64,000 nt of DNA from an uncultured Thermodesulfobacteriota bacterium (GTDB lineage: Bacteria > Desulfobacterota > Desulfomonilia > UBA1062), in the NCBI GenBank assembly GCA_942491525.1, contig CALOBW010000055.1:136106-200105 (forward strand), read 5' to 3'. Below, in pieces: positions 1 through 53,463 of this stretch; position 1 is the stretch's first letter; each line of letters begins with the position of its first letter. Below the pieces are notes generated by a model. That model worked only from the letters and a program-made list of their open reading frames with translations. It searched no databases and was not told the origin of the DNA. The translations under genes were made by a program, and so were the position numbers.

Positions 1-466
1 AATGTAGAAATGTTCCATAGTATAAGGTTGCTGTTACATATACAGGATGGATGCGCTTGATGATGATTTTAGAAATTTTGTGATTAAGGCAATATTTAAG
101 GATATTTCTGAGTAGAGTTGTTCTTTTTATAATTTTTTTTGTACTGAAAAGCATTTGTTGGCAGATATAGAGTGGGGGAAGAGTGAATATAAGCACGGTA
201 ATCGCACTTAAATATAGGATCACCATTCTCGTGCTGTGTTTGATCAATCTAAGGGTATCTAGCAGCAGGGGATATATCCCTGGCAGAATATGCTTCTCCA
301 GAAGAATTGTTTCATAAGACTTTTTGGCTGAGGAATTTGCGTTACTGATTATATCATTGAATCCTACTACCTGAACAAGATAGTTTTTTGAGGCAGATTC
401 TGCCTCCCAATCAATTCTAGGATCTAACGAAGGATGGTGAGCCGCTAACATTTTAATTGTCTGCAT
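1..466 (-). CDS. possible hypothetical CDS with start in window and 3' end beyond left window edge (absent from ORF track because no in-window stop)
   Basis: Reverse-strand ATG at 466..464 preceded by AAGGAA (SD-like). Frame stays open ~155 codons to position 1 (MQTIKMLAAHHPSLDPRIDWEAES...). It lies 57 bp downstream of the wzt stop on the same strand. The AT-rich low-complexity C-terminal stretch lowers confidence. Confidence 0.3.
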   Translation of the reverse strand, partial: MQTIKMLAAHHPSLDPRIDWEAESASKNYLVQVVGFNDIISNANSSAKKSYETILLEKHILPGIYPLLLDTLRLIKHSTRMVILYLSAITVLIFTLPPLYICQQMLFSTKKIIKRTTLLRNILKYCLNHKISKIIIKRIHPVYVTATLYYGTFLH

Positions 467-523
467 TATTATTCCTTATTTATTAATATGTTCTATTAAT
501 TATTTATAGAGGGCGATTGCCTT

Positions 524-1837
524 CTATAATTTGTTTGTACTCCATGATAGTAGTGGTCTCAATGATCCGCTGTATTCACCATGGTAATCACCTTTGAGTA
601 CTCCATCATCCACTGCGTCAAATGAAGCGACGTTTTCAGTGCGGAAGCCATCATTCCAATGATTAATGAAACCAGAGATGCTTATGTTGTATCTTCCTGA
701 GTTAAGTAGATTGCCTGGAATAATACAGGTTGAGTAATAGGTTCCTTTGGTCAGATTGGAACCATAGTCGGGAGATTGATTGTTGAGCGAGCTGAAAACG
801 CTGTTTCCATCCATGTCGAAGAGCATGAGTGAAAATTGAGGAGATGTTTTATTCGTAGTAACTTCGAAGGTTATACGAATGTGTAGTTCATCAGTAAGAT
901 TAAAAATTGATGATTCCTTACCCTCTTTGGTTAGTAGGGTTACTGCAGCTATATTCAATGATTCATTCCCTGGACGGTCTTGGGTCTTCCATGTTGTGGA
1001 GCTTTTTGTGCGACTTCCCAATTCCAGATAGTTATTCACCACTTTTTGTATTTTGTCATCCTGTTCTATTTCTCCGGCACTAATTAAAATGCCTCGGCTA
1101 CAGAATTTGACCACAGCTGGCATGTTATGGCTGATAAATAGGATGGTACGGCCTTCTTGAGAAGATAGTTCATTCATTTTGCCAAGGCATTTTTTTTGAA
1201 AAGCCGCGTCGCCGACGGCTAAGACCTCATCTACAAGTAGTATTTCTGACTCAAGATGGGCGGCCACGGCAAAGGCTAGACGAACATACATACCGCTTGA
1301 GTAACGTTTTACGGGTGTATCAAGAAACCGTTCGATTTCAGAGAATGCTACAATTTCATCAAACTTACGGTTGATCTCAGCCTTGCGCATTCCTAGAATA
1401 GTTCCATTGAGATAAATATTCTCGCGGCCGGTCAACTCAGGGTGAAAGCCTGTGCCAACTTCTAGGAGACTTGCCACTCGTCCATGCAATTTTACTTCGC
1501 CGGATGTCGGTTCGGTGATGCGGCTGAGTATTTTGAGTAAAGTTGATTTGCCTGCACCGTTGCGCCCGATTATACCGACTACTTCTCCGGGGTGAACCTG
1601 GCAACTGATATTTTTTAGTGCCCATATCATATCTTCGCTGGGATTCATTCCGCTCCTTGTTGAATCCTGCTCTTTTGTTGAGAACCGAGTAAGTCTACGC
1701 ATGTTATTTAAGTTTCGAATCGGGGCGGCGAGTATATCGGCCATGGCTTCTCGTAGGTTTTGGCTTGTGTGGTTAGCGGCACCAATGCGATATGCCTTAG
1801 AGATATTGTTTATCTGGATTATTGGATGGGAAGTCAT
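524..1837 (-). CDS. wzt: O-antigen/polysaccharide ABC exporter ATP-binding protein Wzt with C-terminal carbohydrate-binding extension
   Basis: Walker [18 protein letters not shown] signature [14 protein letters not shown], Walker [13 protein letters not shown]. About 180-aa C-terminal beta-rich extension beyond the NBD, as in Wzt_C domains. Confidence 0.9.
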
Positions 1838-1839
1838 TG

Positions 1840-2667
1840 TTAGATTACATCCGCTAAGTGTTTTCTTGTCTGATTGAAATATATGAGTCCGATTATAAGT
1901 AGAATTGTGCTGACAATGCCAGATGTAATTATCATTACGATAGGAAAGTCTACGGTATCGAGTAGTACTGAACGGAAACCTTCTATTATACCAGTCATGG
2001 GGTTAAGTGAATAAACAAATTTCCATTTTTCAGGTACCAGTGAAGTTGGGTAGACAATGGGACTGGCGAACATCCAAAATTGTGTCAAAAAGGGGGTGAG
2101 ATATTGGATGTCGCGGTATCTTGCATTTAATGCTGAGAGAAGTAGTCCAGTACCTGTCGCAGTAATAACCATAAGCATGATCAGTATTGGTAAAAATACT
2201 ATGAAGATAGTGGGTTGGATTTGATAATAAAGAAGCATTCCAATTCCCACTCCGAAAGCGATGATGAAATCTAGTAATCCTGCCACCACAGGGGTAATGG
2301 GGATGAGTATTCGTGGAAAATAAACTTTGGATATTAAATGACTTGATCCGATAATACTGTTGCCGGAACTAGCGATTGCGGTTGAGAAATAGGTCCAGAT
2401 AACCATAGCCGTGTAATTAAAGATCGCATACGGTACTCCATCGGAAGGGATTTTTGCTAGACGGCCTAGGAATATTGTGAAGATCATCATCATGAATAAC
2501 GGGCGGATAACTGCCCACAAAAACCCTAAGATAGTTTGTTTGTATTTGACTTTGATGTCGCGGGCCACGAGAACGTATAGAAGATCTCGATATTGGCTTA
2601 GCTCATGGAAATCAATTAGTTGTAGGCCTTTTTTTACCTTAATGTGTACGTAGGGAGTTTCGTGCAT
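1840..2667 (-). CDS. wzm: ABC-2 type polysaccharide exporter permease Wzm
   Basis: 275 aa, six predicted TM helices, ABC-2 permease-like, immediately upstream of and overlapping wzt. Confidence 0.85.
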
Positions 2668-2696
2668 AATAGTTTAAATAGATGGTGCTATTTGTG

Positions 2697-2720
2697 TATA
2701 TAGCTCCGCCATTCCGGGTG
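2697..2720. repeat. left copy of 24-bp inverted repeat (tatatagctccgccattccgggtg)
   Basis: Matches reverse complement of 5288..5311 at 23/24 positions. Located in wzm-GT4 intergenic spacer. Confidence 0.8.
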
Positions 2721-2797
2721 TATCCGGTTGGAATGAGTATTTATTGTGATCATAGCGCTGCATGGTTTCTATGTTTATCTGAATAAACGATTAAATC

Positions 2798-3913
2798 TTA
2801 AGTCATGGACGTGTATAGATCAACATATCTTTGGGCGATGGTGGTCCATGAAGTGTCACAGCTAACCTGTGTGCGTTTTTTTTCAAGCGTTGAAATCGTT
2901 ATGCGATTGTTAAGGGCATCGATGATTCTGTTGGCCAGCTCAAGGTCATTGCCTGGGGGAAACAGATAGCCGTCTGATCCATGATTGATCCAGGGGTGAT
3001 TAGCTTCGATATCGGTTACTACCGGGATTAAGCCGGCGCTTATGGCTTCCAGCAGGGCGATGGAGGTGCCGTCTTCGGTGGCCGTGGATATAAAAATTTT
3101 GGATTTGGCCATTATCTGGGCAACTTCCTCGTTGGAGACTCGCCCTCTGATTTCGATGAAATCTGAGACGTTGAGTTTGTTGACCAGCGCTCTGAGTATT
3201 TCAAGCATTGATCCATCACCAACCATCAGAAAGCGGGCATCGGGGTGTTTTTTTAAAACATGGGGAATTGATCTGATAAAGGTTGCCGGATCGTATATTT
3301 TTTCCATGCTGCGGGCATAGAGAATTATCGGTGGACGGTTGCCTGGTTCAATTGAGCTGAAGATATCGGCAGATCCTGAAGGAATTATTTCAGCATTTCT
3401 TAATGATGCAATACTCTGCATCTGTCTGGATACAATGACCAATCGGTCTGATAAATTTGTGGCAAGGCGGAAGAGAAGGCCAATGGGGCCTTTTTGTCCG
3501 ATGCGGGTGTCCATGCCGCGGGCGGTATTTATTACCGGTGTTCTTGTTATCTTGCCTACGATGCCGGCAATCAAGCCGGTTGGAACAATCCAGTGTCCAT
3601 GAATGATGTCGGGTCGTTCCTTAATTACTAGAGTTAGGGCTTTGCAGAGGCCGGTTAACATGTAGATTGACATGGCGATGATTGGCACTTTGTTTGTTTG
3701 ATTGAGCGGTTTGTCATCGCTTGGATAGCGGAATCTGTAGACTGGGATATCGTCGTCAAGTTCAAAACGGGGACTTTGACGGAAGACTTGGGGCGTCAGA
3801 ACAATGGTATCGATGCCTTGCGCTTTTAGTGCAAGGCAGAGTTTTTTTATGAAGATTCCACGATAGGATTCAGGAAAGTCGGGGTAGCCGTTTGAAATCA
3901 TAAGAACCTTCAT
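2798..3913 (-). CDS. glycosyltransferase family 4 (GT-B, retaining)
   Basis: C-terminal GT1/GT4 signature region KIFISTATEDGTSIALLEAISAGLIPVVTDI...GYLF. N-terminal Rossmann-like domain. Confidence 0.8.
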   Translation of the reverse strand: MKVLMISNGYPDFPESYRGIFIKKLCLALKAQGIDTIVLTPQVFRQSPRFELDDDIPVYRFRYPSDDKPLNQTNKVPIIAMSIYMLTGLCKALTLVIKERPDIIHGHWIVPTGLIAGIVGKITRTPVINTARGMDTRIGQKGPIGLLFRLATNLSDRLVIVSRQMQSIASLRNAEIIPSGSADIFSSIEPGNRPPIILYARSMEKIYDPATFIRSIPHVLKKHPDARFLMVGDGSMLEILRALVNKLNVSDFIEIRGRVSNEEVAQIMAKSKIFISTATEDGTSIALLEAISAGLIPVVTDIEANHPWINHGSDGYLFPPGNDLELANRIIDALNNRITISTLEKKRTQVSCDTSWTTIAQRYVDLYTSMT

Positions 3914-4046
3914 GCCAGATCTATAGCATGTAAATTGAAAGGCTGAAAGGTTACATGATCAGAATGTTATTCTATGGTTGTACTCGTTTGATTGTTGTTA
4001 TAGAGCTCATAGCAAATACGCTTATGCGCTTGAAAACGGAGGAGAT
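3914..4046. promoter_or_regulatory. divergent intergenic promoter region between GT4 (-) and wbpE-like (+)
   Basis: 133-bp AT-rich spacer between divergently oriented genes. GGAGG SD at 4037..4041 upstream of ATG 4047. No specific -35/-10 assigned. Confidence 0.3.
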
Positions 4047-5210
4047 ATGATCCCATTTATCGATCTTAAGAAACAGCAGGATCTGATTATAGATAAAATT
4101 AACGAAAATATTCAAAAGGTTCTTAGTCATGGCGGCTATATTATGGGTCCAGAGGTTACAGAACTTGAGACGCGGCTAGCTGAGTATGTGGAAGTTAAAC
4201 ATGCCATCTCGTGCTCGTCCGGTACGGATGCTCTGCTAATGGCCCTGATGGCCTACGGTGTTGGCCCGGGCGACGCAATTTTTACAACCCCCTTTACTTT
4301 TGTGGCTACGGCTGAGGTCATTGCACTGCTGGGAGCAACGCCCGTATTTGTAGATATTGATCCGAAGACCTTCAATATCGATCCTGCCCTTTTGCAAAAG
4401 GCAATTGCTGCGCTGAAAGCAAAGGATACATCGATGCATCCTTTGCCTGCCGGTTATGAGAAGTTGACACCGCGTGGGATAATTCCGGTAGACCTGTTCG
4501 GTCAGCCGGCCGATTATGATCGGATCAATGCAATTGCAGCAGAAAACGATCTTTTTGTGATCGAGGACGCCTGTCAGTCATTCGGAGCTGAATATAAGGG
4601 GCGCAAGGCCTGTTCATTGGCAGAGGCGGCTGCGACCTCATTTTTTCCAGCCAAGCCCCTAGGCTGTTATGGTGACGGCGGCATGGTCTTTACCAATGAC
4701 GATGAGTTGGCTGAGAAGATGATTTCTGTGCGTATCCACGGCAAGGGGTCTGACAAGTATGATAATATTCGCATCGGCATTAACGGCCGTCTGGATACCA
4801 TGCAGGCTGCCATTCTCTTGGCCAAGATGGATATCTTCCCGGATGAGGTTGTCAAACGTCAGGCTGTGGCAGGCAGATATTCTGAACTGTTGAAAAATGT
4901 TGTCGAGTGCCCCTATGTTGAGGATGACAACTTGAGCGCCTGGGCTCAGTATTGTGTGCTTTCCGATGACCGGGATGCGATGCAGGAAAAGTTGAAGGCA
5001 GCTGGCGTTCCTAGCGCCATCTACTATCCGATCCCGCTTCATCTACAGAGTGGTTACAGTTATCTAGCGTACAAATCTGGAGATTTTGTGGTTTCTGAAA
5101 ATGCTGCTGAGAACATTTTTGCGTTACCTATGCATCCCTATCTTGATGGGGGCGAACAACAGCAAATAGTGGAGCCCTTAGTGAGTTATGTATCCTTTGG
5201 GATGCCTTGA
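4047..5210 (+). CDS. wbpE: DegT/DnrJ/EryC1/StrS-family PLP sugar aminotransferase, WbpE/WlbC-like (UDP-2-acetamido-2-deoxy-3-oxo-glucuronate aminotransferase type)
   Basis: Start moved to ATG 4047 with GGAGG SD. MIPFIDLKKQQ...GPEVTELE...SCSSGTDAL...DIDPKTFNIDP...SFFPAKPLGCYGDGG (PLP-Lys motif). Strong WbpE-like N-terminus. Confidence 0.8.
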   Translation: MIPFIDLKKQQDLIIDKINENIQKVLSHGGYIMGPEVTELETRLAEYVEVKHAISCSSGTDALLMALMAYGVGPGDAIFTTPFTFVATAEVIALLGATPVFVDIDPKTFNIDPALLQKAIAALKAKDTSMHPLPAGYEKLTPRGIIPVDLFGQPADYDRINAIAAENDLFVIEDACQSFGAEYKGRKACSLAEAAATSFFPAKPLGCYGDGGMVFTNDDELAEKMISVRIHGKGSDKYDNIRIGINGRLDTMQAAILLAKMDIFPDEVVKRQAVAGRYSELLKNVVECPYVEDDNLSAWAQYCVLSDDRDAMQEKLKAAGVPSAIYYPIPLHLQSGYSYLAYKSGDFVVSENAAENIFALPMHPYLDGGEQQQIVEPLVSYVSFGMP

Positions 5211-5287
5211 CGAATTGGTGTTGTTAATATAGCACGTCGATACTTCGGTATGTTTTGATTTACTAAAATATTAGCAGTATGTCCGGT

Positions 5288-5311
5288 CACCCGGAATGGC
5301 GGAGCTGTATA
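5288..5311. repeat. right copy of 24-bp inverted repeat
   Basis: cacccggaatggcggagctgtata is the reverse complement of the 2697..2720 repeat with 1 mismatch. Located in wbpE-wzz spacer just upstream of wzz RBS. Confidence 0.8.
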
Positions 5312-5327
5312 TTCTGTAGGAGATTAG

Positions 5328-6278
5328 ATGATGAGTGTACAAAAAGCACATGAAGTTTATGAAGATGAAATCGATCTGGTAGAAATCGTTGCTGTCTTGT
5401 GGCGTCGCAAATGGCTGATTCTGTCAGTTGCGGTTATTGTATCTCTTGCTTGCGCGCTTCATTCGTTTTCAAAAGAGAAGCTTTATACGGTATCAGCAAC
5501 TGTTATGCCTAACAGTTTGAGCTATGATGAAAGTGGCGACCCTCAATATGTTGATGATGTTAAGAATTTTAAGGCGAAGATTAATGGTGGCTGTTATTGG
5601 GATGAATTAAAGAGCAAGTCATCGGATGGTTGGTTGCCGTCATTTAGCGTCAATGTGAATGAGGTTGCTCGGGAAATAGTGATATCTTCTAATGTGGTCA
5701 AAGAGAGGGTTGATCAGACAAAGATTTTATTGGGTGATCTTAGTCGTTTGGTTAACCGTGATTATGAGAACCGTGTTTTGATTCAGCTGCAAGCTATAGA
5801 GCTTGAACAGGAAAAGTTGGCCATGCTGCTTAAGGAGGAACAAAATATTGTTGCAGAGATGAAAGCTGTCTCGTTAAGTATGTCTGAGCTGGTTGAACGG
5901 CGTGATAACTTTATTAAACAGAATCCATCTGCTTCTGACAGCACAGCCTTGCTTTATGCTACCGCAATCCAGCAGGATAGAGGTTATTTGAATCAGCTTA
6001 GCAATCAGTTGAAATCGGTCCGGGCGCAATTGCTGCTTAATAAGTTTAAATTTCAGAAGATGAAGCTGGCAAATGATTCTGGTGATGGTCAACAGATTGT
6101 GGCGTTGGTTACCATTCATGAACCGGCTGCGACAACCAGTCCGATTTCTCAGCATGGAAAACGTAATGTGTTGCTTTCGTTGATTGTCGGGTTGATTTTG
6201 GGTGTCTTTGTGGCATTTGTGGTGCAGTTTGCCGAGATTGTGCGGCATAGAAAAAGGAACTTTTCTAATCATAATTGA
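5328..6278 (+). CDS. wzz: polysaccharide chain-length determinant (Wzz/PCP-like) protein
   Basis: N-terminal TM after LVEIVAVLWRRKWLIL, long coiled-coil periplasmic region, second TM near C-terminus (LLSLIVGLILGVFVAFVV). Confidence 0.65.
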   Translation: MMSVQKAHEVYEDEIDLVEIVAVLWRRKWLILSVAVIVSLACALHSFSKEKLYTVSATVMPNSLSYDESGDPQYVDDVKNFKAKINGGCYWDELKSKSSDGWLPSFSVNVNEVAREIVISSNVVKERVDQTKILLGDLSRLVNRDYENRVLIQLQAIELEQEKLAMLLKEEQNIVAEMKAVSLSMSELVERRDNFIKQNPSASDSTALLYATAIQQDRGYLNQLSNQLKSVRAQLLLNKFKFQKMKLANDSGDGQQIVALVTIHEPAATTSPISQHGKRNVLLSLIVGLILGVFVAFVVQFAEIVRHRKRNFSNHN

Positions 6279-6287
6279 GAGGTTTAT

Positions 6288-7298
6288 GTGAATATCTCGG
6301 GAAAAAATGTTTTGGTTACAGGTGCAGATGGCTTCATCGGGTCTCATTTGACAGAAACTCTTGTGCGGCAAGGTTATGATGTTCGTGCGTTTGTGATGTA
6401 TAATTCTTTTAATTCTTGGGGATGGTTGGATCAGGCTGATTCTGAAGTGCAGAAAAATATGGATGTATTTGCTGGTGACATCAGAGATCCCCATGGAGTG
6501 CGTCAGGCCATGCAGGGTTGTGATATTGTAATGCATCTGGCTGCCCTGATTGCTATCCCATATTCATATCACTCTCCTGACACCTATGTGGATACAAATG
6601 TTAAGGGCACATTGAATGTTGTGCAGGCTGCTCGTGATTTGGGCGTCGAAAAAGTGGTACATACATCTACTAGCGAAGTGTATGGCACGGCTAGATTTGT
6701 GCCGATTACAGAGGAACATCCCCTGCAGGGGCAGTCGCCGTACTCGGCATCCAAGATTGGCGCAGATCAGATGGCATTGTCTTTTTATCAGTCATTTGAT
6801 ACGCCTGTGGCAGTGATTCGTCCATTCAATACTTACGGCCCCAGGCAGTCTGCTCGGGCTGTTATTCCTACAATTATTGGGCAGATCGCTAATGGTAAGC
6901 GAAAGATCAAGTTGGGATCGTTGCATCCGACCCGAGACTTTAATTATGTCAAGGATACTGTTAGGGGATTTTTAGCAGTTGCCGAGGCTGATTCTTCTGT
7001 TGGTGAAGTGATTAATATCGGTAGTAACTATGAGATTTCTATCGGTGATACCGTTGAGCTGATATCAGAGGTGATGGGGGTTAATATTGAAATTGAAACT
7101 GATGATCAGCGTCTGCGACCTGAAAAGAGTGAAGTTGAACGTCTCTGGGCTGACAATGCCAAAGCTAAAGAGTTGGTTGGTTGGGCTCCTGAATATGGTG
7201 AGCGTGATGGTTTTAAACGAGGATTAGCTGAAACGGTAGAGTGGTTTACCAATTCGGATAATTTGAAACAGTATAAAACTTCAATTTATAATATTTAA
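6288..7298 (+). CDS. NAD-dependent NDP-sugar 4,6-dehydratase, LegB-like (nonulosonate pathway)
   Basis: VLVTGADGFIGSHL Rossmann motif, YSASK catalytic motif, YNSFNSWGWLD segment typical of the LegB-like dehydratase subgroup. Confidence 0.7.
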   Translation: MNISGKNVLVTGADGFIGSHLTETLVRQGYDVRAFVMYNSFNSWGWLDQADSEVQKNMDVFAGDIRDPHGVRQAMQGCDIVMHLAALIAIPYSYHSPDTYVDTNVKGTLNVVQAARDLGVEKVVHTSTSEVYGTARFVPITEEHPLQGQSPYSASKIGADQMALSFYQSFDTPVAVIRPFNTYGPRQSARAVIPTIIGQIANGKRKIKLGSLHPTRDFNYVKDTVRGFLAVAEADSSVGEVINIGSNYEISIGDTVELISEVMGVNIEIETDDQRLRPEKSEVERLWADNAKAKELVGWAPEYGERDGFKRGLAETVEWFTNSDNLKQYKTSIYNI

Positions 7299-7314
7299 AA
7301 GTAAGTTAATTGGA

Positions 7315-9080: not shown

Positions 9081-9116
9081 TTATTTGACTTATCGAATAT
9101 TGATTTTGTTGATTAA

Positions 9117-12889: not shown

Positions 12890-12903
12890 TAGGGAGATTT
12901 TAA

Positions 12904-14100: not shown

Positions 14101-14108
14101 AGGACGAA

Positions 14109-14858: not shown

Positions 14859-14883
14859 CATGTGCTCGATTGGTAAGTAATTT

Positions 14884-17167: not shown

Positions 17168-17175
17168 GAATTGAA

Positions 17176-18102: not shown

Positions 18103-18108
18103 TAGCTA

Positions 18109-20496: not shown

Positions 20497-20508
20497 GAAA
20501 TATTATTT

Positions 20509-23260: not shown

Positions 23261-23328
23261 TGAAATTTGAAATATCTACCATTTAGTAATCAAATTGTTT
23301 TAGTGTCAGATGTAAGGATATCTTAGTA

Positions 23329-28928: not shown

Positions 28929-28934
28929 TGTAGT

Positions 28935-30815: not shown

Positions 30816-30838
30816 ATTCTTATTCGGGAGATTCTGTC

Positions 30839-31828: not shown

Positions 31829-31840
31829 GATGATTTAAAT

Positions 31841-32983: not shown

Positions 32984-32988
32984 ATGAT

Positions 32989-35100: not shown

Positions 35101-35132
35101 AGTTGTGATGATGTCATTCCTGGGATTAATTT

Positions 35133-40080: not shown

Positions 40081-40081
40081 T

Positions 40082-41092: not shown

Positions 41093-41158
41093 GTATTGAG
41101 GGGTAGTTTGCTAAAGATAGTATTAGTTGGATGGCTGATGTTAAGAGGACGATAATAG

Positions 41159-43084
41159 ATGCACCTATTAAAATATAAAAATTTCTGGTTTATTTTGTTT
41201 CTAGACATCTGTGCCGTGGTTTTGTGTTTTATTCTTGCCTTTGGGTTGAGGTTTGGCGGTGATGTTGGGCAGCTTGATGGGCAGATTACTTCAGTTGTAT
41301 TGCCTCTGGTTGGTTTGAAGATGATAGCATTCTTTACTTTTGATCTTTATAGAGGGATGTGGCGTTATGCTGGGGTTAATGATCTAATTAATGTCATCAA
41401 AGCATCTGTTGTTGGAAGCTTCCTTTTTGTAGTCTATATGGCGATGTTTCACCATTTTGAGGGTATGTCTCGCTCGGTATTGATTGCTGATTGTATTTTT
41501 ACAATTGTTGCTGTTGGAGGTATTCGTCTGGGTGTACGGGTCTATTATCAGCGTGATCCCAAATTTCTGGAAGATATTGTGTTTTGGCGGCGGTCAATGC
41601 GTGAAGAACATCGGGTATTGATTTTAGGTACTGGTGCCCTGGCTGAGCAGCTCTATCGCGAATTATGCCATAGTACTGTTAAGTTTTATAAGATCGTAGG
41701 TTTTGTCGATGAAGGTGGCTTTCATAAAGGTCTTAAGATTCACGGAGTTCCAATCGCCGGTAATTTAAAAGATATTCCTCGTTTGATTGGATATTATTCT
41801 GTTAATGAAGTCATGGTTGCCTCAACTTCCTTGATGCCTGAAATTGTATCGAAATTGGTAGATGTGTGCTCGGCCGCTGGTGTTGAGCTTAAGACCGTTG
41901 AGCCGCTTGGTGATCGCTCGGTTGATAATATTGCTAATAATTTGAGATCAATTAAAGTAGAGGATCTACTTGATCGTGAACCTGTTCGTCTTGATATGGA
42001 CTTGGTGCGCCAGGAGATTGAAGGTAAATGTGTTCTTGTAACAGGTGCGGGTGGGTCAATTGGCTCTGAATTGGCAAGACAGATTTTGAGTTATCGACCG
42101 AGTACGTTGGTACTATTGGATAATGCAGAAACCCCATTGTATCGGATTGATATGGAGCTTCAGAATCTGGAGGCTCAGACTGTCGTGATTCCCTGCATAG
42201 GTGACGTGCGTAGCTCTAGAAATTTGGAGCGTATTTTTAAGAAGTTTAAGCCTGAATATGTCTATCATGCTGCAGCCTATAAACACGTGCCTATGATGGA
42301 GATGGCACCACTTGATGCGGTTAATAATAACATTATGGGCACCTATAAGCTTGCTATGGTTGCCTGTAAATATCACGTAAATAAATTTGTCATGATTTCA
42401 ACTGATAAGGCCGTGCGTCCCACATCTGTAATGGGTACAACAAAACGGGTGGCAGAGATGGTTGTCCAGAGCATGAATGGTAATGGCACTCGTTTTGCTG
42501 TTGTGCGATTTGGAAATGTCTTGGGTAGTAATGGAAGTGTGGTCCCTTTATTTGAACGTCAGATTGCTGAGGGGGGGCCGGTGACTGTCACCCATCCTGA
42601 TGTGACCAGATATTTTATGACCATCCCTGAGGCTGTACAGTTAGTTTTGCAGGCAGGGTCGATTGGTCAGGGGGGGGAATTATTTCTGCTTGATATGGGT
42701 AGTCCTGTAAAAATTATCGATCTGGCTCGCAAAATGATTCGGTTGGCTGGAAAGGTTCCTGAACGGGATATTGAGATCGAGTGTGTCGGTTTGCGGCCAG
42801 GTGAAAAATTGTATGAAGAACTTTTGATAGACGATGAGGGTGTTGTTGACACGGCGTATGATAAGATAAAGATTTGTAATAGTAGTTGTGGTGTGGATGA
42901 GGAGAAACTTTATGCGGCGATTGAAAAGTTTAAGTTGTTAATCGAGAGTTCTGGTGATCAAAGTTTAGCAGTCAGTCTACTTTACAAATTAGTGCCAGCC
43001 TATGAAGAGCAGGTTCGTATGATGGATGATCGGTTAGTTTTGGCTCCTCAGCCTCTGATAGAACGAGAGGAAATTACGGATTAG
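41159..43084 (+). CDS. wbpM: membrane-anchored NDP-sugar 4,6-dehydratase/epimerase (WbpM/PglF/CapD family)
   Basis: Four N-terminal TM helices, two Rossmann domains (ILGTGALAEQ, VLVTGAGGSIGSEL), YKHVPMME, VMGTTKRVAE. Confidence 0.9.
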   Translation: MHLLKYKNFWFILFLDICAVVLCFILAFGLRFGGDVGQLDGQITSVVLPLVGLKMIAFFTFDLYRGMWRYAGVNDLINVIKASVVGSFLFVVYMAMFHHFEGMSRSVLIADCIFTIVAVGGIRLGVRVYYQRDPKFLEDIVFWRRSMREEHRVLILGTGALAEQLYRELCHSTVKFYKIVGFVDEGGFHKGLKIHGVPIAGNLKDIPRLIGYYSVNEVMVASTSLMPEIVSKLVDVCSAAGVELKTVEPLGDRSVDNIANNLRSIKVEDLLDREPVRLDMDLVRQEIEGKCVLVTGAGGSIGSELARQILSYRPSTLVLLDNAETPLYRIDMELQNLEAQTVVIPCIGDVRSSRNLERIFKKFKPEYVYHAAAYKHVPMMEMAPLDAVNNNIMGTYKLAMVACKYHVNKFVMISTDKAVRPTSVMGTTKRVAEMVVQSMNGNGTRFAVVRFGNVLGSNGSVVPLFERQIAEGGPVTVTHPDVTRYFMTIPEAVQLVLQAGSIGQGGELFLLDMGSPVKIIDLARKMIRLAGKVPERDIEIECVGLRPGEKLYEELLIDDEGVVDTAYDKIKICNSSCGVDEEKLYAAIEKFKLLIESSGDQSLAVSLLYKLVPAYEEQVRMMDDRLVLAPQPLIEREEITD

Positions 43085-43205
43085 TTTGATCTAAACGATG
43101 CGTAACTTGAGGCTCTCTGCGTCAGTAGGGGGCTTTTCTTGTATGTGAAGTTGCGTATCGTAGGGGGCTATGTTAATCACAAATAAAGTTTTATGAGGAG
43201 CTTGT

Positions 43206-44786
43206 ATGAACAATTCAGCGTCTGCAGATATAATGCCCAAGGTTGCTGTCGTTGGCAGCGGATATTGGGGTAAGAATTTAATACGCAATCACCATGAATT
43301 AGGCTCACTTTGGGCTATTTGTGATACAAATCAGGATGTTTTGGATGGATTTGCTGTTCAGTATCCAGGGGTTCGGTGTGAAGCTAATTATCAGCAGTTA
43401 CTGGCAGAACCTGAATTAGATGCCGTAGTGTTGGCTGCCCCGGCCGCTATGCATTTTTCACTAGCTCGTGAAGCCTTAACCGCAGGTAAGGATGTCTTTG
43501 TTGAGAAGCCCTTAGCGCTGGATGTGGTGGAGGCTCAGGAACTGTCAGATCTGGCAATAGAAAATAACTGTATCCTTATGGTTGGCCATTTGCTGCAGTA
43601 TCATAGTGCTTTTATAAAGTTGAAAGAGCTGGTGGCCGGCGGTGAGCTTGGTCGAATTAACTATATCTATTCCAATCGGTTGAGTCTCGGGAAGATCAGG
43701 CGTGAGGAGGATATTCTTTGGAGTTTCGCTCCGCACGATATTTCTATGATTTTGTCTCTGGCAAAGGATCTGCCCGAGTCGGTGGCGGCGATCGGCGGCA
43801 ACTACCTGCATAAAAAGATTGCTGATGTAACAACTACTCATTTGGAATTTTCCAGCGGCTTGAAAGCCCATGTGTTTGTCTCCTGGTTGCATCCATTCAA
43901 GGAGCAAGTACTGGTTGTGGTTGGCGACAAGAACATGGCCGTATTCAATGACACCCTGCCTTGGGATCAGAAACTGCAGCTATATCCTCATGATATCGCT
44001 TGGGATAACGGAGTGCCGGTGCCCAATAAGAAAGATGCGGTTAAGGTTGAATTAAAAGAGAGTGAGCCTCTCAAGGATGAGTGTCGGCATTTTCTTGATT
44101 GCGTTAGTGAACGTCGTAAGCCAGTAACCGATTCGTTGGAGGGCATGGCTGTACTTAAGGTTCTGAGGGCCAGTCAGGAATCATTGGAGCAGAACGGAAA
44201 ACGAATTTTCCTGCAATCTGAGTTGCAGAACGAGCCAGAATATTTTGCACACGAAAGCGCTGAGATTGATGCCGATGTTTCTATTGGTAAGGGAACTAAG
44301 ATTTGGCATTTTTCACATGTACTTGGACACTCTGTAATTGGTGAAAATTGTAACATAGGTCAGAATGTTGTGATTGGACCAAACGTGAATATTGGTCGGA
44401 ACTGCAAAATTCAGAACAATGTCAGCGTCTATAAAGGCGTGACCCTTGAAGACGGTGTTTTCTGTGGACCGTCGATGGTCTTTACCAACATTTATAATCC
44501 ACGGGCCGAAATCGTCAAAATGGATCAGGTGCGGCCGACTCTGGTTAAGAAAGGGGCCAGTATCGGGGCCAATGCCACAATAGTTTGTGGCGTGACTCTC
44601 GGCAGCTACTCATTTATCGGTGCCGGAGCGGTTGTTACAAAGGACGTACCGGACTATGCATTGATGGTCGGCAATCCGGCAAAGCAGAGCGGTTGGGTGT
44701 GTCGTTGTGGTGAAAAACTATCTGATTTGAAGTGTTGTCAGTGCGGTATTCAATATTATCTGGAAAAAGATGAATTGAAGTGCTGA
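43206..44786 (+). CDS. fusion of WbpB/WlbA-like Gfo/Idh/MocA UDP-sugar 3-dehydrogenase with WbpD/WlbB-like left-handed beta-helix N-acetyltransferase, plus C-terminal Cys-rich zinc-ribbon tail
   Basis: N-terminus [12 protein letters not shown]...EKPLA (Gfo/Idh/MocA). Residues ~350-500 hexapeptide repeats [31 protein letters not shown]. Tail [16 protein letters not shown]. Confidence 0.8.
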
Positions 44787-44801
44787 TGTCTGAGGGCTGA
44801 G

Positions 44802-46259
44802 ATGGACAGACGACCAGCCGCATCGTTTATGAAGAATGCCTTTAAGCTTGCCTTCGGCAGTAGCTTTGCGCAGCTGCTGGGGCTGTTGGTTCTTCCGATT
44901 CTTACGAGAATATTTGCACCTGATGATTTTGGGATTTTTGCAATCTTTATATCGTTGACTGGTTTGCTGGGTGTTGTGGCGTGTTTGCGGTATGAGATGG
45001 CCATAATGTTACCTGAGCGTGATGAGGATGCTGCCAATATTGGGGTACTTTGTATCGGTCTCTCTTTGGTAGTTTCTCTTGTTCTTGGCGGTATCTTGGC
45101 GTTTTTTAAAGAACCACTCTTTGTTGCGATTAAGGCTGAGTCTTTTTTGCCCTATGTTGCATTAATACCTGTCAGCGTGTTCTTTTTCGGACTCTATCTC
45201 TCCTTGAACTATTGGAATACTCGATTTAAACGGTTTGGTGGCCTGGCAAAGGCTAGGATTGTACAGTCTTCGGCCAGTCAATTGGGTAAACTGTTGTTTG
45301 GTCTGTCTGGAATGGTTGCCGGTATCTTTTTGGTTATACCGCATCTGTTTGGGCAGGTACTTTGTGTCGGTTATCTGTTTTGGGATACCATAAAATCCGG
45401 CAGATTGAGTCTACTGAAGAGTGTAAGTTTTGAGAAAATATTTGAGAATGCCAAACGGTATAGGCATTTACCTCTCTACGGTACATGGTCTGCTTTGCTG
45501 AATACCGCATCCAATCAGGTGCCGCTTTTGATTTTGGCATATTACTTTACAACTCAGGTTGTCGGGTATTTCTCTCTCAGTTTTCAGGTACTGAGCTTGC
45601 CGATGCTTTTGTTGGGCACGGCAGTCGGTCAAGTTTTTTTTCAGAGAGCTACAGAAGCGCTCAGGGAAGGCGCTTTAGCGGTAACAGTTGAAAAGCTCTT
45701 GGTAGCTTTAGTTACATTGAGTATTGTGCCATTTTTTGTGTTGGGCATTGCAGGTGGTGATCTTTTCAGCATTGTGTTTGGCCCACAATGGACCGCCGCC
45801 GGATTATATGTGCAGCTATTGAGTGCCTGGGTGTTCCTCGTCTTTGTATCAACCCCATTGAGTACTATCTTTGATGTATTGGAAAAACAGAGAGTATTTT
45901 TGGGGTGGAATATCTTGCTTTTTGTTACGCGTGTGGCAGCTATGTTGGTGGGCGGCATTGCCGGCAGTCCTAAACTGTCTGTTGCGTTATTCGGCTTTGT
46001 AGGGGTGTTGGATTATACGTTGTTGATTGGCTTGATTGTCTATTATAGTTGTGCCGATATTTCCAGGATTTTGGCAGCTTTCAGTAAGCCAGTTCTAGTT
46101 GCAGCCCCTTTTTGTATATTGCTGTATATTATTGGACTTTTGCCTTTAGCTGGAGTGCAATTATTGTTATTGTTAGGAATTATGTTGCTAATATACTATG
46201 GGGTTTTGTTTAAGGTTACAGGATTAGAAAACTTAATGCGACAGGTCGTTCTTAGGTAG
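44802..46259 (+). CDS. wzx: O-unit flippase Wzx (MOP superfamily polysaccharide biosynthesis protein)
   Basis: KLAFGSSFAQLLGLLVLPILTRIFAPDDFG N-terminal signature of Wzx-type flippases. About 12-14 TM. 485 aa. Confidence 0.7.
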   Translation: MDRRPAASFMKNAFKLAFGSSFAQLLGLLVLPILTRIFAPDDFGIFAIFISLTGLLGVVACLRYEMAIMLPERDEDAANIGVLCIGLSLVVSLVLGGILAFFKEPLFVAIKAESFLPYVALIPVSVFFFGLYLSLNYWNTRFKRFGGLAKARIVQSSASQLGKLLFGLSGMVAGIFLVIPHLFGQVLCVGYLFWDTIKSGRLSLLKSVSFEKIFENAKRYRHLPLYGTWSALLNTASNQVPLLILAYYFTTQVVGYFSLSFQVLSLPMLLLGTAVGQVFFQRATEALREGALAVTVEKLLVALVTLSIVPFFVLGIAGGDLFSIVFGPQWTAAGLYVQLLSAWVFLVFVSTPLSTIFDVLEKQRVFLGWNILLFVTRVAAMLVGGIAGSPKLSVALFGFVGVLDYTLLIGLIVYYSCADISRILAAFSKPVLVAAPFCILLYIIGLLPLAGVQLLLLLGIMLLIYYGVLFKVTGLENLMRQVVLR

Positions 46260-46267
46260 GGGTGTAA

Positions 46268-47506
46268 GTGATTAGATTGAAAAGCCAACAGGATCTGAAG
46301 AGCGGTGTTATGCAGGCACTGATCTTTATGAATTTACCTTTTTTGATGTTTATGATTGTGGCCATGATGTTTCAGCTTGTTAGACTAGAGACATATGATT
46401 CCGTCAAAATGGTTGTTCAGTTGCTCTCTTGTGGTGGGATATTGGTTCTACTTGCTATGAGTCTTGGTGATATTTACAAGAATTGGCAGTTCTTTTCATA
46501 TTTCTATGTGTTTGTTTTGATGTTGATATGGTTGTCCATTGTGACCCTGGTTCATTCTGCTGTACAAAGTGGCTCAGTCTTGCGGTTGAATTTGTATGTA
46601 ATCTATCTGTATATTGTTTATTTTATAGTTGGTTGTGGGGTTCTGAGCGAGAGAAGTCGAGCTTTAGATTTGCTGGCTGGTGGGCTGTGGATTGTAGCTG
46701 CTTTCTTGATTTGTCAGCATGTCGATTGGAGTAACCTTCGTATTAATATGTCACTGGTCAGAATTGATGCGCGGGCCATACATCTATATCTGGGAGATAT
46801 GTTTGCTGTTGTTTCTCTTTACTTGATCTGTTCACGAGACCGATTTTGGCAGCGATATCTGTTGTGGGTTGCTGCTGTTGTGATGGTATTCATAATTGGC
46901 TCTCGTACATCTTTTTATGCCCTGGTGGCTGTCTTGCCGCTGACAATTGTTTTCGGGCGGGATTGGAAGGCTTTCGCAGGATTTGCCTTGACGTTGGCTG
47001 TTGTTGGTGTGCTGGGGATGGTATTTCTTGGCGATGATTACCTCAAGAGTCATCGGATGCTCTCGTTTGTCTTTACCGGTTCAGATCATAACTTTGCAGC
47101 GAGGGGGGATTATTTTGTTGAAGGTATGCGCCAGCTGTGGAGTAACTGGTTCTGGGGTGATTATGCAGGTCAGCTACATCAAGGACGAGGTATTGGCTTT
47201 TATATTCATAATTACTTTTCAATTTGGCGTCAGTTTGGACTGATTCCCTTTGTGCTGTTTTTGTACATGGTTGGAGTATCTTTGAGAATAATTGCCGAAG
47301 GTATTAGAACATTCAATGATGGTCGTTTTAAACTGTTTGTCCTGTTAATGGCTTTTTGTTTGATTGAGGTGGCCTTTTCAAGGGCATATATGTTTCCGTT
47401 TATATTTATACCGCTGGGAATGGGTGGGCGTTTTTTGATTGAGAAGTACAGAGATGATTCTGTGAGTGGGGGAGCCGTTGCAGCGGATACTTTATCTGAC
47501 GTTTAA
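46268..47506 (+). CDS. polytopic membrane protein, O-antigen polymerase (Wzy)/ligase-like candidate
   Basis: 412 aa, 10-11 TM helices with a larger loop near residues 270-320 (FFWGDYAGQLHQGRGIGFYIHNYF), Wzy-like organisation. No strong family motif. Confidence 0.5.
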   Translation: MIRLKSQQDLKSGVMQALIFMNLPFLMFMIVAMMFQLVRLETYDSVKMVVQLLSCGGILVLLAMSLGDIYKNWQFFSYFYVFVLMLIWLSIVTLVHSAVQSGSVLRLNLYVIYLYIVYFIVGCGVLSERSRALDLLAGGLWIVAAFLICQHVDWSNLRINMSLVRIDARAIHLYLGDMFAVVSLYLICSRDRFWQRYLLWVAAVVMVFIIGSRTSFYALVAVLPLTIVFGRDWKAFAGFALTLAVVGVLGMVFLGDDYLKSHRMLSFVFTGSDHNFAARGDYFVEGMRQLWSNWFWGDYAGQLHQGRGIGFYIHNYFSIWRQFGLIPFVLFLYMVGVSLRIIAEGIRTFNDGRFKLFVLLMAFCLIEVAFSRAYMFPFIFIPLGMGGRFLIEKYRDDSVSGGAVAADTLSDV

Positions 47507-48677
47507 TGATCCATATGCCTCGCCCGGTGTTAACCGTAAGGAACGGGAGTTCTGTGCGCGCATGGGCAGTGTCTGTGCTGAGCATGGCATTGAATTTAAG
47601 GGTGTTGATGTATTTACTCCTGAGTATTCCAATGGCAAGTCGCGTCAGGATTCTGAGTTCTTTGAACATCATGAGGTGACCAATTGGTTGCACAGGATTT
47701 TTATGCATGTGCGTTTTGTGAGGGCGCTTTTCAGGGTTCGACCACTGGTTGATGCCGCCTATAGGTTGATTGATGAGTATGATCCGGATGTTTTGATCTG
47801 GCGTTATGACATTATTAATCTGCCGGGAGTTTTCTATCCCAAGAGATATAAAAGGGATCTGGTGCTGATTAGCGAACATCAGACAAAGGAGCCGGAGGAG
47901 TTGGCCCTTAATCTGATCGGCCGGATTAAGATGCCGCTTTTGCGTCGTTATGAGCAGCAGTTTGCCCAGACAGTGGATGCGGTTGTGGGTGTGACGTCTG
48001 AGATTGCAACCTATGAAGTTGAACGCTTCAGGCCGGATTTGCCGAGTCATGTTCATACCAATGGCATCAATGTGGCGAGCTGTAAGGTTGCGGATTATTC
48101 TGATTTTGACGGCAAAGTGTTGCGTATTATCTTTGTGGGCTCGGCCACTGCGCCGTGGCATGGAGTGGATCGCCTGCTGCAGGGGCTGGCTGGTTACAGT
48201 GGAGATGTTAGGGTTGAGTTGCACATGGTCGGTGTTGCGACAGACGAGACAGTTGCTTTGGTGGATTCGCTCGGGCTCAATGATATGGTCGTCTATCATG
48301 GGGTTCAGTATGGCGCGGATCTGGATGCAATTTTTAATCAGGCCCATCTCGCTGTAGGTGCCCTGGGTTTGCATCGTCAGAACCTTAAGTATGGTTCTAC
48401 CCTTAAGGTCAGAGAGTATATGGCGCGCGGCGTACCCATTGTGATTTCGCATATTGATGAGGATATTGCTCAGGACTTCCCGCTGTGCCATATTGCGCCG
48501 GCGGATGAGTCGCCCCTCGATATAGAGCGTCTTGTGGAGTTTGCCCGGTCCGCCTATTCAGATGTTGGTGCGGCGATTCCGCAAATTATGCACCGCTATG
48601 CTTCAGAAAATATGGACTATGAGGGCAAGGCCAGCCGTCTGCTGGATTTTGTCAAAGAGGTCGTGGGAGAGAGCTGA
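47466..48677 (+). CDS. glycosyltransferase family 4 (GT-B); intermediate-GC gene at the compositional junction
   Basis: GT4 C-terminal STLKVREYMARGVPIVISH region. Start uncertain (ATG 47466 overlaps upstream gene by 41 nt). The antisense 361-aa ORF over the same DNA was judged a shadow ORF. Confidence 0.7.
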   Translation: MGEPLQRILYLTFNDPYASPGVNRKEREFCARMGSVCAEHGIEFKGVDVFTPEYSNGKSRQDSEFFEHHEVTNWLHRIFMHVRFVRALFRVRPLVDAAYRLIDEYDPDVLIWRYDIINLPGVFYPKRYKRDLVLISEHQTKEPEELALNLIGRIKMPLLRRYEQQFAQTVDAVVGVTSEIATYEVERFRPDLPSHVHTNGINVASCKVADYSDFDGKVLRIIFVGSATAPWHGVDRLLQGLAGYSGDVRVELHMVGVATDETVALVDSLGLNDMVVYHGVQYGADLDAIFNQAHLAVGALGLHRQNLKYGSTLKVREYMARGVPIVISHIDEDIAQDFPLCHIAPADESPLDIERLVEFARSAYSDVGAAIPQIMHRYASENMDYEGKASRLLDFVKEVVGES

Positions 48678-48680
48678 GTC

Positions 48681-49514
48681 ATGCTTTTTGTCGTTGTGCT
48701 CTATACTGATGATCTTGGTTCCTGTACGACGATCGCATCGTTGGGTAGACTTGCCTTCACGCGTCAGATTCATCTCCACTTTCAGATAAACGGCACCCGA
48801 GATTTTAGTTCCGAGTTGCATGAGTTGTTTGATGCTGATTATGGCCGGGTGAGCTGTGCATATGATGGCTGCAATCGGGGGATTGTGCATGCCTATCGCG
48901 AAGCCGTCCGCATATATGGCGGTGGCAGTGAGTGGGTTACCCTGCTGGATCAGGACAGTGATTTTGATGTAACCTGGCTTGATACGCTCAATGCCGGTTT
49001 GTCAAATATGCAGCCGGATGATGTGGCCCTGGTGCCTCGTATCGTCTCATCTGGTGCGCAGATCTCACCATTCAGGCTGAGTCTGGGTAGGGTGATCCCT
49101 TTTGATAGCGATGGCGGCTTTCCGGTCTGCATCAACTCCTTGACCACCTTCCGGGCGGGCTATCTGCAGAAGCTGGCTGACGACTTTCCGGTCAGCTTCT
49201 TCCTGGACGCCTTCGATGTCTGGCTGTTTCATCGGATGCATAAGGCTGGGCTAAGTTTCAAGCTGCTGGATGTAACGGTCAAGCATGAGCTCTCCCTGAG
49301 CAGTGGTGCAGTCAGTGAAACCATGCTGGCGCGCGAGTTGATGTCACTGATTAATATGACTCGGATTTCCCTGACGCTTATGCCCATGAGTCTGCTGCGT
49401 TTTATATTTAGGCAGCTAAAGCTGGCAGCGCGTATGCGCAGCCTGCGGCCCTTTAATTTGATTGCAACTTATAGAAGATACAGATATCTGATTAAGGATA
49501 TTGGAGCAGCATGA
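48681..49514 (+). CDS. GT2-like (rhamnosyltransferase-like) protein, divergent
   Basis: MLFVVVLYTDD, LLDQDSDF acidic motif. Weak GT-A resemblance only. Confidence 0.45.
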   Translation: MLFVVVLYTDDLGSCTTIASLGRLAFTRQIHLHFQINGTRDFSSELHELFDADYGRVSCAYDGCNRGIVHAYREAVRIYGGGSEWVTLLDQDSDFDVTWLDTLNAGLSNMQPDDVALVPRIVSSGAQISPFRLSLGRVIPFDSDGGFPVCINSLTTFRAGYLQKLADDFPVSFFLDAFDVWLFHRMHKAGLSFKLLDVTVKHELSLSSGAVSETMLARELMSLINMTRISLTLMPMSLLRFIFRQLKLAARMRSLRPFNLIATYRRYRYLIKDIGAA

Positions 49515-53454: not shown

Positions 53455-53463
53455 GGAGGCGGT

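Follow-up and report, generated by a model that had tools for sequence, protein, structure and literature searches.

In the O-specific antigen locus of Pseudomonas aeruginosa (ihfB ... wbpM), the serotype cassette is variable and of lower GC, and its conserved end carries a WbpM-type membrane dehydratase and a WbpL/WecA-type initiating transferase. The O-antigen clusters of Salmonella contain segments of lower GC content, with GC rising towards the flanks, and are read as the outcome of transfer from lower-GC sources together with recombination in the flanking genes (PMC3715488), and exchange by homologous recombination has been proposed for the replacement flexible genomic islands of aquatic bacteria (Lopez-Perez, Rodriguez-Valera; PMC4033161). 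Here we analyzed a stretch of 64,000 nucleotides (hereafter the window) from an uncultured Thermodesulfobacteriota bacterium (contig CALOBW010000055.1 of assembly GCA_942491525.1, positions 136,106 to 200,105), in which a large block of low-GC glycan genes lies within a surface-polysaccharide locus of higher GC. The locus exemplifies a well-known phenomenon, surface-polysaccharide loci whose centre is low in GC and exchanged horizontally, and represents no new element or mechanism: the variable centre of a resident locus was probably imported by recombination, with margins that would be older or partly ameliorated.

Composition and Boundaries of the Low-GC Block

The GC content per 1-kb interval was 34.6-48.8% at 1-48 kb and 51-61% at 48-64 kb, with a dip to about 40% at 60-61 kb, so the AT-rich left and GC-rich right sides described in a first-pass annotation of this DNA are real, with these measured values in place of its hand counts. 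A change-point test was performed by a binomial likelihood fit, with 200 shuffles of 100-bp bins as the null, and the single best break within the window was located at 47,900 (GC 0.402 to the left and 0.560 to the right), with a log-likelihood ratio of 605 compared with at most 26 in the 200 shuffles. The block had been thought to start at position 1. The Logan contig L031 (run ERR9670067), which is 100% identical to positions 1-4757 and reaches 7.7 kb further left, shows 2.3 kb more of it, comprising two further low-GC genes (a 468-aa family 4 glycosyltransferase, GT4, and a 439-aa hypothetical protein, with GC at third codon positions, GC3, of 0.36 and 0.34, respectively). When two change points were fitted to the window and this extension together, they fell at -2303 and 47897 and delimited a 50.2-kb block, with GC of 0.513, 0.401 and 0.560 to its left, within it and to its right, respectively. 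From about -2290 the left flank encodes an epimerase, an AsnB, a second epimerase and a glycosyltransferase (GT) with GC3 of 0.57-0.67, so that both flanks of the block consist of glycan genes too, at higher GC, and the AT-rich block is the compositional anomaly, with higher-GC DNA on either side.

The GC3 of individual genes ranged from 0.27 to 0.50 on the left side and from 0.63 to 0.87 on the right side, and averaged 0.319 ± 0.028 over the 30 genes of the core and 0.767 ± 0.080 over the 10 of the native set (Mann-Whitney p = 3e-6); composition across the boundary, which the first-pass annotation had proposed as a check, is thus not uniform (0.32 in the core versus 0.77 in the native part). 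Within the block, the thirds of the core at 7-41 kb have GC contents of 37.9, 39.0 and 40.1%, and the Karlin delta* of the dinucleotide signature (x1000) is 21-43 among these thirds but 92-176 when they are compared with the native flank. The 34-kb core is therefore compositionally homogeneous, and true heterogeneity is found only at the margins and in protein-level affinities. An internal contrast of 25-38% GC at 6-15 kb against 45-50% at 33-45 kb had been taken as the sign of a mosaic from more than one donor, but the measured values are 35-45% and 37-47%, and with the core homogeneous the GC basis for a mosaic falls away.

The right edge is a ramp rather than a step. Over about 41-53 kb, the GC3 of successive genes runs 0.38 (WbpM-like), 0.46, 0.44, 0.42, 0.53 (GT4), 0.57, 0.70, 0.68, 0.77 and 0.82. 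The GT4 gene at 47466-48677 is of intermediate composition, as had been noticed (GC 0.505, GC3 0.53), and its GC3 is flat along the gene (0.50-0.56). It was also correctly described that the gene string stays co-directional and tightly packed over the boundary; the spacers over the right transition are 15, 8, -29, 3, 0, -4 and -4 bp, and all genes point in the same direction. The idea of a block grafted in-frame does not hold, since these are separate open reading frames (ORFs) in an operon-like string with no ORF fused across the transition, and the GT4 has a uniform GC3 of about 0.52. The unusually clean GC drop of about 20 points, with a graded edge that passes through orthologous genes, might repay study.

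Conservation of the Locus among Relatives

The genes tadA, tRNA-Ser, ffs and dnaX, which had been reported at the right end of the window, are all present there according to Pfam, tRNA and signal recognition particle (SRP) RNA calls. These core genes of the host are rich in GC, and so are their counterparts in relatives. The closest relatives of dnaX are 60-69% identical, and those with names are metagenome-assembled genomes (MAGs) of Desulfomonilia, Deltaproteobacteria or Syntrophaceae, which makes the host a member of a sparsely sampled, Desulfomonilia-like lineage. The right side does not consist of core genes only, as had been stated, since further high-GC glycan genes occupy 48.7-59.4 kb.

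A metagenome scan with the Bac_transf protein yielded 26 loci at 54-70% identity. More than 10 of these carry the anchor [GT2]-Bac_transf-(membrane protein)-tadA-...-dnaX, with different glycan genes upstream; written out with its tRNA gene, this conserved skeleton reads GT2-Bac_transf-membrane protein-tadA-tRNA-Ser-dnaX. The locus L029/L030 (dnaX 64%) shows the order of three GT4 genes, Bac_transf (61%), membrane protein (32%), tadA (65%), tRNA-Ser(CGA), MBOAT (41%), tRNA-Ser(GGA) and dnaX. The entire right flank at 49.5-59.9 kb is shared by L040 and L061, and synteny of the native part (51064..59409), with identities of 33-69%, was observed in L029, L038, L040, L061 and others. Eight consecutive genes from the second Wzx at 44.8 kb to Bac_transf are shared by L038 at 42-65% identity (Wzx, Wzy-like protein, GT4, hypothetical, GT2, hexapeptide acetyltransferase, GT2 and Bac_transf), a level similar to that of its tadA and dnaX (63%). 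The orthologs of the ramp genes (58, 44, 65 and 60% in L038; 67 and 66% in L040) have the GC3 typical of their own genomes. Moreover, L052, L055 and L057 each have a WbpM ortholog (60-64%) at a distance of 4-7 kb upstream of the anchor, separated from it by different genes. Against a GC3 of 0.38 in the window, the copies of L052 and L057 reach 0.69-0.75, and that of the low-GC L055 has 0.41. In all these relatives the orthologs carry the GC3 of their own genomes, and in high-GC relatives the 10 kb preceding the anchor are flat in GC. The 67-kb contig of another relative carries AsnB, the bi-domain oxidoreductase (66%), heparinase, GT4 ... WbpM (60%) about 38 kb upstream of dnaX (62%), and the GC3 of that region is 0.73-0.82 compared with 0.33-0.38 in the window copies (0.77 versus 0.33 for the bi-domain oxidoreductase). 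The gene content of the core is not common to the relatives.

A position of about 47.5 kb as the junction of foreign and native DNA is contradicted by these loci, because the genes from 44.8 kb on are syntenic in L038 (42-65%) and WbpM recurs in three relatives. The expectation of a conserved high-GC flank with a variable insert in related genomes was borne out as regards the anchor, found in more than 10 loci, but the cassette from 44.8 kb on is also kept in L038. Taken together, the relatives' loci show an ancestral glycan locus at this site, with a skeleton that was kept and a variable centre, whose low GC over 50 kb is particular to the present genome.

The loci that share the Bac_transf-tadA-dnaX anchor (L038-L065; 54-70% identity) come from genomes of about 41% to 63% GC, so a low-GC donor need not be from another phylum. 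This span is unusually wide for one lineage. Since genomes of 41-45% GC (L055, L053 and L038) belong to the same broad lineage, the host itself might be such a low-GC member with an acquired high-GC right end; yet tadA, two tRNAs, ffs and dnaX stand at that end in the conserved order of the lineage, and the DNA to the left of the block is also higher (51% GC, with the GC3 given above), which makes the low-GC segment an island, and we regard an acquired right end as highly improbable.

Origin of the Low GC Content

The implied GC of the source was computed from the regressions of Lawrence and Ochman (1997). For the 30-gene core, GC1/GC2/GC3 of 48.9/35.9/32.3% imply a source of 35.8, 34.2 and 38.2% GC, and because the three values agree the core is at a low-GC equilibrium at all three codon positions; as local decay would lower position 3 first, this points to long evolution in a low-GC genome rather than recent decay. 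Amino-acid usage of the oxidoreductase and of AsnB is shifted in the same way, and the uniform composition shows that the core shared one background for a long time. At the margins, the implied source GC at positions 1/2/3 is 42/34/57 for the left flank, 32/33/43 for module A, 42/33/44 for segment D and 50/48/55 for segment E. With position 3 ahead of positions 1 and 2, the margins might be older or partly ameliorated imports, although this is only suggestive because the native set (51/45/65) has the same position-3 offset.

According to the explanation that we prefer, the central 50 kb would have evolved for long in a background of about 35-38% GC, and the centre of the locus would have been replaced or expanded by recombination and not by a self-mobile element. 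Replacement by recombination is favored because the block lies within a pre-existing glycan locus whose skeleton is kept in relatives. The crossovers would likely have fallen in conserved skeleton genes (WbpM ... GT2-Bac_transf on the right and epimerase/AsnB on the left), and the margins (the left flank and 41-51 kb) would be lineage-typical genes that either derive from earlier or overlapping imports of lower-GC alleles or have been pulled back to host composition, both of which would give a ramp and not a step. How the transfer took place and in which direction, in how many events and from which donor is inferred, whereas the composition shift with its boundaries, the gene content, the skeleton kept in relatives, the host-like GC of their orthologs and the lack of mobility genes or repeats were observed. 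The earlier proposal of a foreign block that replaced native genes by recombination rather than through a mobile element keeps its substance (the anomaly, the absence of mobility genes and repeats, and the preserved skeleton) and loses its junction and its mosaic.

The donor search was carried out with three low-GC genes. The best non-self matches of the bi-domain oxidoreductase form a plateau at 62-66% (Vibrio, Shewanella, Sulfuricaulis, Competibacteraceae and the lineage relative), and those of LegC, at 62-69%, bear mostly Bacteroidota names, with Cloacimonadia and one deltaproteobacterial MAG. The prediction that best hits to the left and right would come from different phyla is not supported, as the three low-GC genes plateau at 48-69% with mixed taxonomy. 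The differing taxonomic flavour of the matches of the two modules hints weakly at a composite history at the protein level.

In addition, we analyzed the synonymous skew of the genes at 1-48700 of the window and at 4758-12460 of L031. Third-position skew follows the + strand: plus-strand genes of the block have a GC-skew at third positions (skew3) of +0.2 to +0.5, with T3 > A3, and five low-GC and four left-flank minus-strand genes have skew3 of -0.30 to -0.50 on their coding strand. In relatives at any GC, |skew3| is at most about 0.25, so the block (+/-0.3-0.5) exceeds every relative examined. The low-GC relatives were considered as a source of the strong skew and rejected, as their values of only +0.05 to +0.25 are not explanatory. 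A crude decomposition, based on few minus-strand genes, gave an absolute G3-C3 excess per site of about 0.12 in the block and about 0.11 in the flanks.

Several points weigh against an import. The similar size of the skew in block and flanks could reflect the replication-strand bias of the host and hence long residence, which is itself difficult to reconcile with a GC3 that has hardly ameliorated; alternatively, the skew of the donor was brought in en bloc in the same orientation. The donor search (the conserved oxidoreductase, LegC and a fast-evolving 648-aa membrane protein) returned nothing above 69% from very large databases. The composition of the host flank rests on about 16 kb on the right and about 5 kb on the left, and none of the left-flank genes has an ortholog in the relatives' loci compared, the only match being one of 37% for AsnB at the level of a paralog. 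Finally, the relatives are distant (57-70% protein identity, best dnaX 69%), so that replacement at the site is deduced from distant relatives only.

In the main alternative, long-resident genes would have acquired or kept their low GC in place, for example through local AT-biased, strand-asymmetric mutation that escapes the selection or biased gene conversion by which the remaining genome stays GC-rich; in a possible variant, surface-antigen genes would be selected to be AT-rich and weakly expressed. It is consistent with a GC ramp that crosses orthologs syntenic in relatives (44.8-53 kb and WbpM), with the nearly unshifted amino-acid usage of WbpM, whose FYMINK fraction is 0.271 versus 0.281 in a high-GC ortholog while GC3 falls from 0.74 to 0.38, with a synonymous skew that follows the + strand in both gene orientations and has a similar excess in block and flanks (few minus-strand genes), with the empty donor searches above 69%, and with the low GC of polysaccharide clusters in general, which is near-universal and unexplained (Reeves et al., PMC3715488). 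Against it stand the low-GC equilibrium of the 30-gene core at positions 1 and 2 as well, which recent decay would not yield, a core gene content that relatives do not have in common, a dinucleotide signature strongly unlike that of the flank, and the host-like GC of homologous modules at the same locus in relatives, from which it follows that neither the genes nor the site enforce low GC. We therefore judge an origin or maintenance in place to be unlikely. Slightly less likely again is its specific form, a locus-specific regime, for instance replication-strand-asymmetric mutation towards AT in a cassette that, without a homologous partner in the population, escapes GC maintenance by recombination or selection, for which the ramp in the orthologous skeleton, the strand-following skew and the empty donor search are the grounds; it is mainly the skew that keeps this reading under consideration at all.

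Mobility Genes, Repeats and Assembly Integrity

Domain statements cover ORFs of at least 150 aa. No integrase, recombinase, transposase, phage or conjugation domain was detected by Pfam in any such ORF, in agreement with the first-pass annotation as to integrases and transposases. Repeats between the block boundaries reach 13 bp at most (E = 0.6), 12 kb lie between the block edge and the closest tRNA gene (tRNA-Ser), and a PADLOC search of the protein of a low-GC islet near that tRNA, the M48 peptidase and six unannotated proteins gave no hits. The integrase, tRNA insertion and flanking direct repeats by which an integrative island, an integrative and conjugative element (ICE) or a prophage is recognized are thus all missing from the block. 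A self-mobile or mobilisable island (ICE, prophage remnant or tRNA-targeted island) inserted here would agree with the large size and unusual composition of the block and with the presence of two tRNA-Ser genes within 15 kb, but 12 kb of native genes separate the block from tRNA-Ser, glycan genes for the same type of pathway lie on either side, the operon-like packing is unbroken over the edge, and neither mobility functions nor boundary repeats above 13 bp accompany it; such an island is very unlikely.

Two sequencing runs gave independent Logan contigs that are 100% identical to the window. L028 covers 41434-50833 and crosses the right transition, L001 covers 26783-41462 as part of a 36.7-kb contig, L002 covers 35040-38109, and L031 and L032 cover the left end, with L031 crossing the left transition. 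An assembly or binning chimera, in which a low-GC contig of another organism was joined to a high-GC contig, might be suspected from a metagenome-derived record whose short-read graph contigs break at 4.75, 41.45 and 50.8 kb; yet each transition is crossed by one contig at 100% identity, the block is present in the second run, and the transition is a smooth ramp in a continuous gene string syntenic with relatives, so a chimera is most improbable. An intragenic chimera in the GT4 gene at 47466-48677 was likewise considered and rejected, given its flat GC3. The graph contigs of run ERR9670067 end in conserved genes, namely DegT (4739-4757), the WbpM-like gene (41434-41462) and the hexapeptide acetyltransferase (50833), and these ends could be branch points between co-existing strains with different cassettes.

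Gene Content of the Locus

Nearly all ORFs were annotated as glycan biosynthesis with Pfam and NCBIfam, with transmembrane (TM) segments counted from hydropathy, as shown in Table 1. The low-GC block holds about 45 genes and at least two export routes. The components of a Wzx/Wzy-dependent cluster were found in the form of two Wzx copies, Wzy, Wzz and the initiating transferases of families PF00953 and PF02397, and those of an ABC-transporter-dependent O-polysaccharide system in the form of Wzm and Wzt with a C-terminal glycan-binding domain. Two AsnB-type enzymes occur, one of them just beyond the window. The window likely covers most of a cell-surface polysaccharide super-locus of at least 70 kb, of O-antigen or exopolysaccharide type, which is anchored beside tadA-tRNA-Ser-ffs-dnaX.

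Table 1. Features of the window with their coordinates, strand and the evidence for each.
Feature	Coordinates	Strand	Evidence
Low-GC block, in-window part	1..47897	.	Change-point fit, GC profile, GC3
Module A, ABC-transporter-dependent polysaccharide export (GC3 0.36-0.50)	1..3913	-	Pfam
GT4, off left window end	1-466	-	Pfam Glycos_transf_1
Wzt with C-terminal domain	524-1837	-	PF00005 + PF14524 (ABC_tran + Wzt_C)
Wzm	1840-2667	-	PF01061 (ABC2_membrane)
GT4	2798-3913	-	Pfam Glycos_transf_1
DegT-family aminotransferase	3978-5210	+	PF01041
Wzz chain-length determinant	5328-6278	+	PF02706
Legionaminic-acid-type nonulosonate module	6288..14858	+	NCBIfam, Pfam
LegB	6288-7298	+	TIGR04180, 553.9 bits (cutoff 475)
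LegC	7315-8469	+	TIGR04181, 551.5 bits (cutoff 420)
NeuD/PglB-family N-acetyltransferase	8466-9080	+	NCBIfam NeuD family, 182.5 (160.8)
GT2-like protein	9117-9992	+	Pfam
NeuB-type synthase	9950-11047	+	Pfam NeuB family, 3.5e-77
CBS-nucleotidyltransferase	11047-12102	+	Pfam
PtmA-like short-chain dehydrogenase/reductase (SDR)	12095-12889	+	Pfam
DegT aminotransferase	12904-14100	+	Pfam
CMP-sugar cytidylyltransferase	14109-14858	+	CTP_transf_3, Pfam only
Decoration/processing genes	14884..32983	+	Pfam, hydropathy
Also in decoration segment: WbqC, GT2, hexapeptide acetyltransferase, GH130-like protein, five methyltransferases, DegT	14884..32983	+
648-aa protein, 14 TM-like segments	21314-23260	+	Hydropathy
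First Wzx	24593-25873	+	Polysacc_synt
Wzy	27717-28928	+	Wzy_C
AsnB-type amidotransferase	28935-30815	+	Pfam
GT4	31841-32983	+	Pfam
Segment from bi-domain oxidoreductase to WecA/WbpL-family transferase	32989..41092	+	Pfam, NCBIfam, homolog search
Bi-domain ADH/GFO oxidoreductase	32989-35100	+	Pfam
Heparinase II/III-like protein	35133-36782	+	Pfam
WecB non-hydrolysing 2-epimerase	36783-37928	+	NCBIfam WecB, 300 bits (cutoff 210)
GT4, then NAD-epimerase	within 32989..41092	+	Pfam
WecA/WbpL-family initiating transferase	39941-41092	+	PF00953
Skeleton genes, low-to-intermediate GC (GC3 0.38-0.46)	41159..47506	+	Pfam, NCBIfam, hydropathy
WbpM/PglF-type membrane dehydratase	41159-43084	+	Pfam, NCBIfam
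Dehydrogenase-acetyltransferase fusion	43206-44786	+	Pfam, NCBIfam
Second Wzx	44802-46259	+	Polysacc_synt_3
11-TM Wzy-like protein	46268-47506	+	Hydropathy
Ramp genes: GT4 (GC3 0.53), 277-aa hypothetical (0.57), GT2 (0.70), hexapeptide acetyltransferase (0.68)	47466..51067	+
Native high-GC part of polysaccharide locus	51064..59409	+	Pfam, synteny
Native part genes: GT2, Bac_transf, MBOAT, two hypotheticals, two acyltransferase-3 genes	51064..59409	+
Bac_transf priming transferase	52033-53454	+	PF02397
Protein with 10 TM-like segments, candidate ligase or polymerase	56014-57381	+	Hydropathy
Core anchor	59402..64000	+
tadA	59402-59869	+	Pfam
tRNA-Ser(CGA)	59870-59962	+
Low-GC islet ORF	60066-60848	+
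M48 peptidase	61006-62202	+
tRNA-Ser(GGA)	62252-62341	+
ffs (SRP RNA)	62368-62466	+
dnaX, off window end	from about 62.6 kb	+

Both LegB and LegC of the legionaminic-acid-type module pass the NCBIfam equivalog cutoffs, and the NeuB-type synthase falls below both of its NCBIfam cutoffs (NeuB 314 against 399.65 and PseI 278 against 340). No hydrolysing 2-epimerase of the LegG/NeuC type was found within the module (6.3-14.9 kb), and the sole Epimerase_2 protein is of the WecB type (NeuC score 74, cutoff 235.9). LegC finds its best match in the cluster L037 (49% GC), which is 80, 67 and 62% identical to the window in LegB, LegC and LegH, respectively, and since its NeuB and PtmE are only 33 and 41% identical despite the 80% of LegB, the module is not a copy of any sampled cluster.

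The 648-aa protein has no Pfam or NCBIfam match. Its family comprises about 700 representatives of similar length, with a best identity of 48% in an exhaustive search of 1.84 billion representatives, and may be an uncharacterised family of polytopic glycan-processing enzymes. The only gap of the block above 300 bp is filled by a small ORF at about 18114-18500, missing from the ORF list of the window, which encodes about 128 aa with four TM-like helices and is EamA/SMR-like.

The first-pass annotation overlooked a low-GC islet at 60.07-60.85 kb. Its ORF (GC 0.39, GC3 0.36), directly 3' of tRNA-Ser(CGA), encodes a 260-aa hypothetical protein with a single TM segment, for which no Pfam or PADLOC hit was obtained, and no att-like repeat was found around the islet. 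In L029, the slot between the two tRNA-Ser genes holds MBOAT and a hypothetical gene instead, and the islet looks like a small variable slot. L029 has a low-GC islet of its own downstream of dnaX (14811-18008, GC3 0.32-0.35), with HNH endonuclease and ADP-ribosylglycohydrolase genes. The M48 peptidase gene, also between the tRNA-Ser genes of the window, has host-like GC, is missing from the slot in relatives and shows a patchy distribution; its nearest homologs among species-representative genomes are about 50% identical, belong to Acidobacteriota and other phyla, and lack synteny.

Comparison with Known Systems

The architecture known from pathogens and marine bacteria, a conserved skeleton beside core genes that holds a large, compositionally alien, serotype-like cassette, is here found in a poorly sampled anaerobic lineage (Desulfomonilia-like Thermodesulfobacteriota). 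For annotation, this means that the block should stay in the bin and not be discarded as a contaminant, and the locus adds to surveys of glycan diversity, of phage-receptor variation and of legionaminic-acid-type sugars in environmental bacteria. A locus-specific low-GC regime, if true, would bear on the old puzzle of polysaccharide clusters lying almost always below genome GC. Besides the clean GC drop with its graded edge, the strong strand-following synonymous skew is a feature that might repay study.

Compared with legionaminic acid clusters of the Campylobacter/Legionella type, the module resembles them in LegB, LegC, the adjacent NeuD-family and NeuB-type proteins, the CBS-nucleotidyltransferase, the PtmA-like SDR and the cytidylyltransferase, and differs in the missing NeuC/LegG-type epimerase and in the synthase described above. 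Compared with the O-specific antigen locus of Pseudomonas aeruginosa, WbpM is here followed, ahead of the core genes, by 9 kb more of the cassette and by a second priming enzyme, Bac_transf.

With the replacement flexible islands, the locus shares a fixed position, the same core neighbours, a similar function carried by different genes and the absence of integrases (PMC4033161); conservation of position and neighbours was observed among distant relatives, and integrases, transposases and att repeats were all absent. Those islands are defined within one species, with peaks of synonymous single-nucleotide polymorphisms at their boundaries (PMC4033161), whereas the relatives compared here are at 57-70% identity only.

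The low-GC O-antigen clusters of enterobacteria (rfb of Salmonella and E. coli) are similar in having segments below genome GC, the lowest GC at the GT/wzx/wzy centre with a rise towards conserved flanks, and no mobility genes (PMC3715488). A serotype series is available only on the rfb side, and the rfb flanks are galF and gnd, whereas the flanks of the present block are themselves glycan genes. Moreover, the host here is an uncultured, Desulfomonilia-like Thermodesulfobacteriota bacterium, and the block extends over 50 kb with about 45 genes and at least two export routes, compared with 10-20 kb in a typical rfb cluster.

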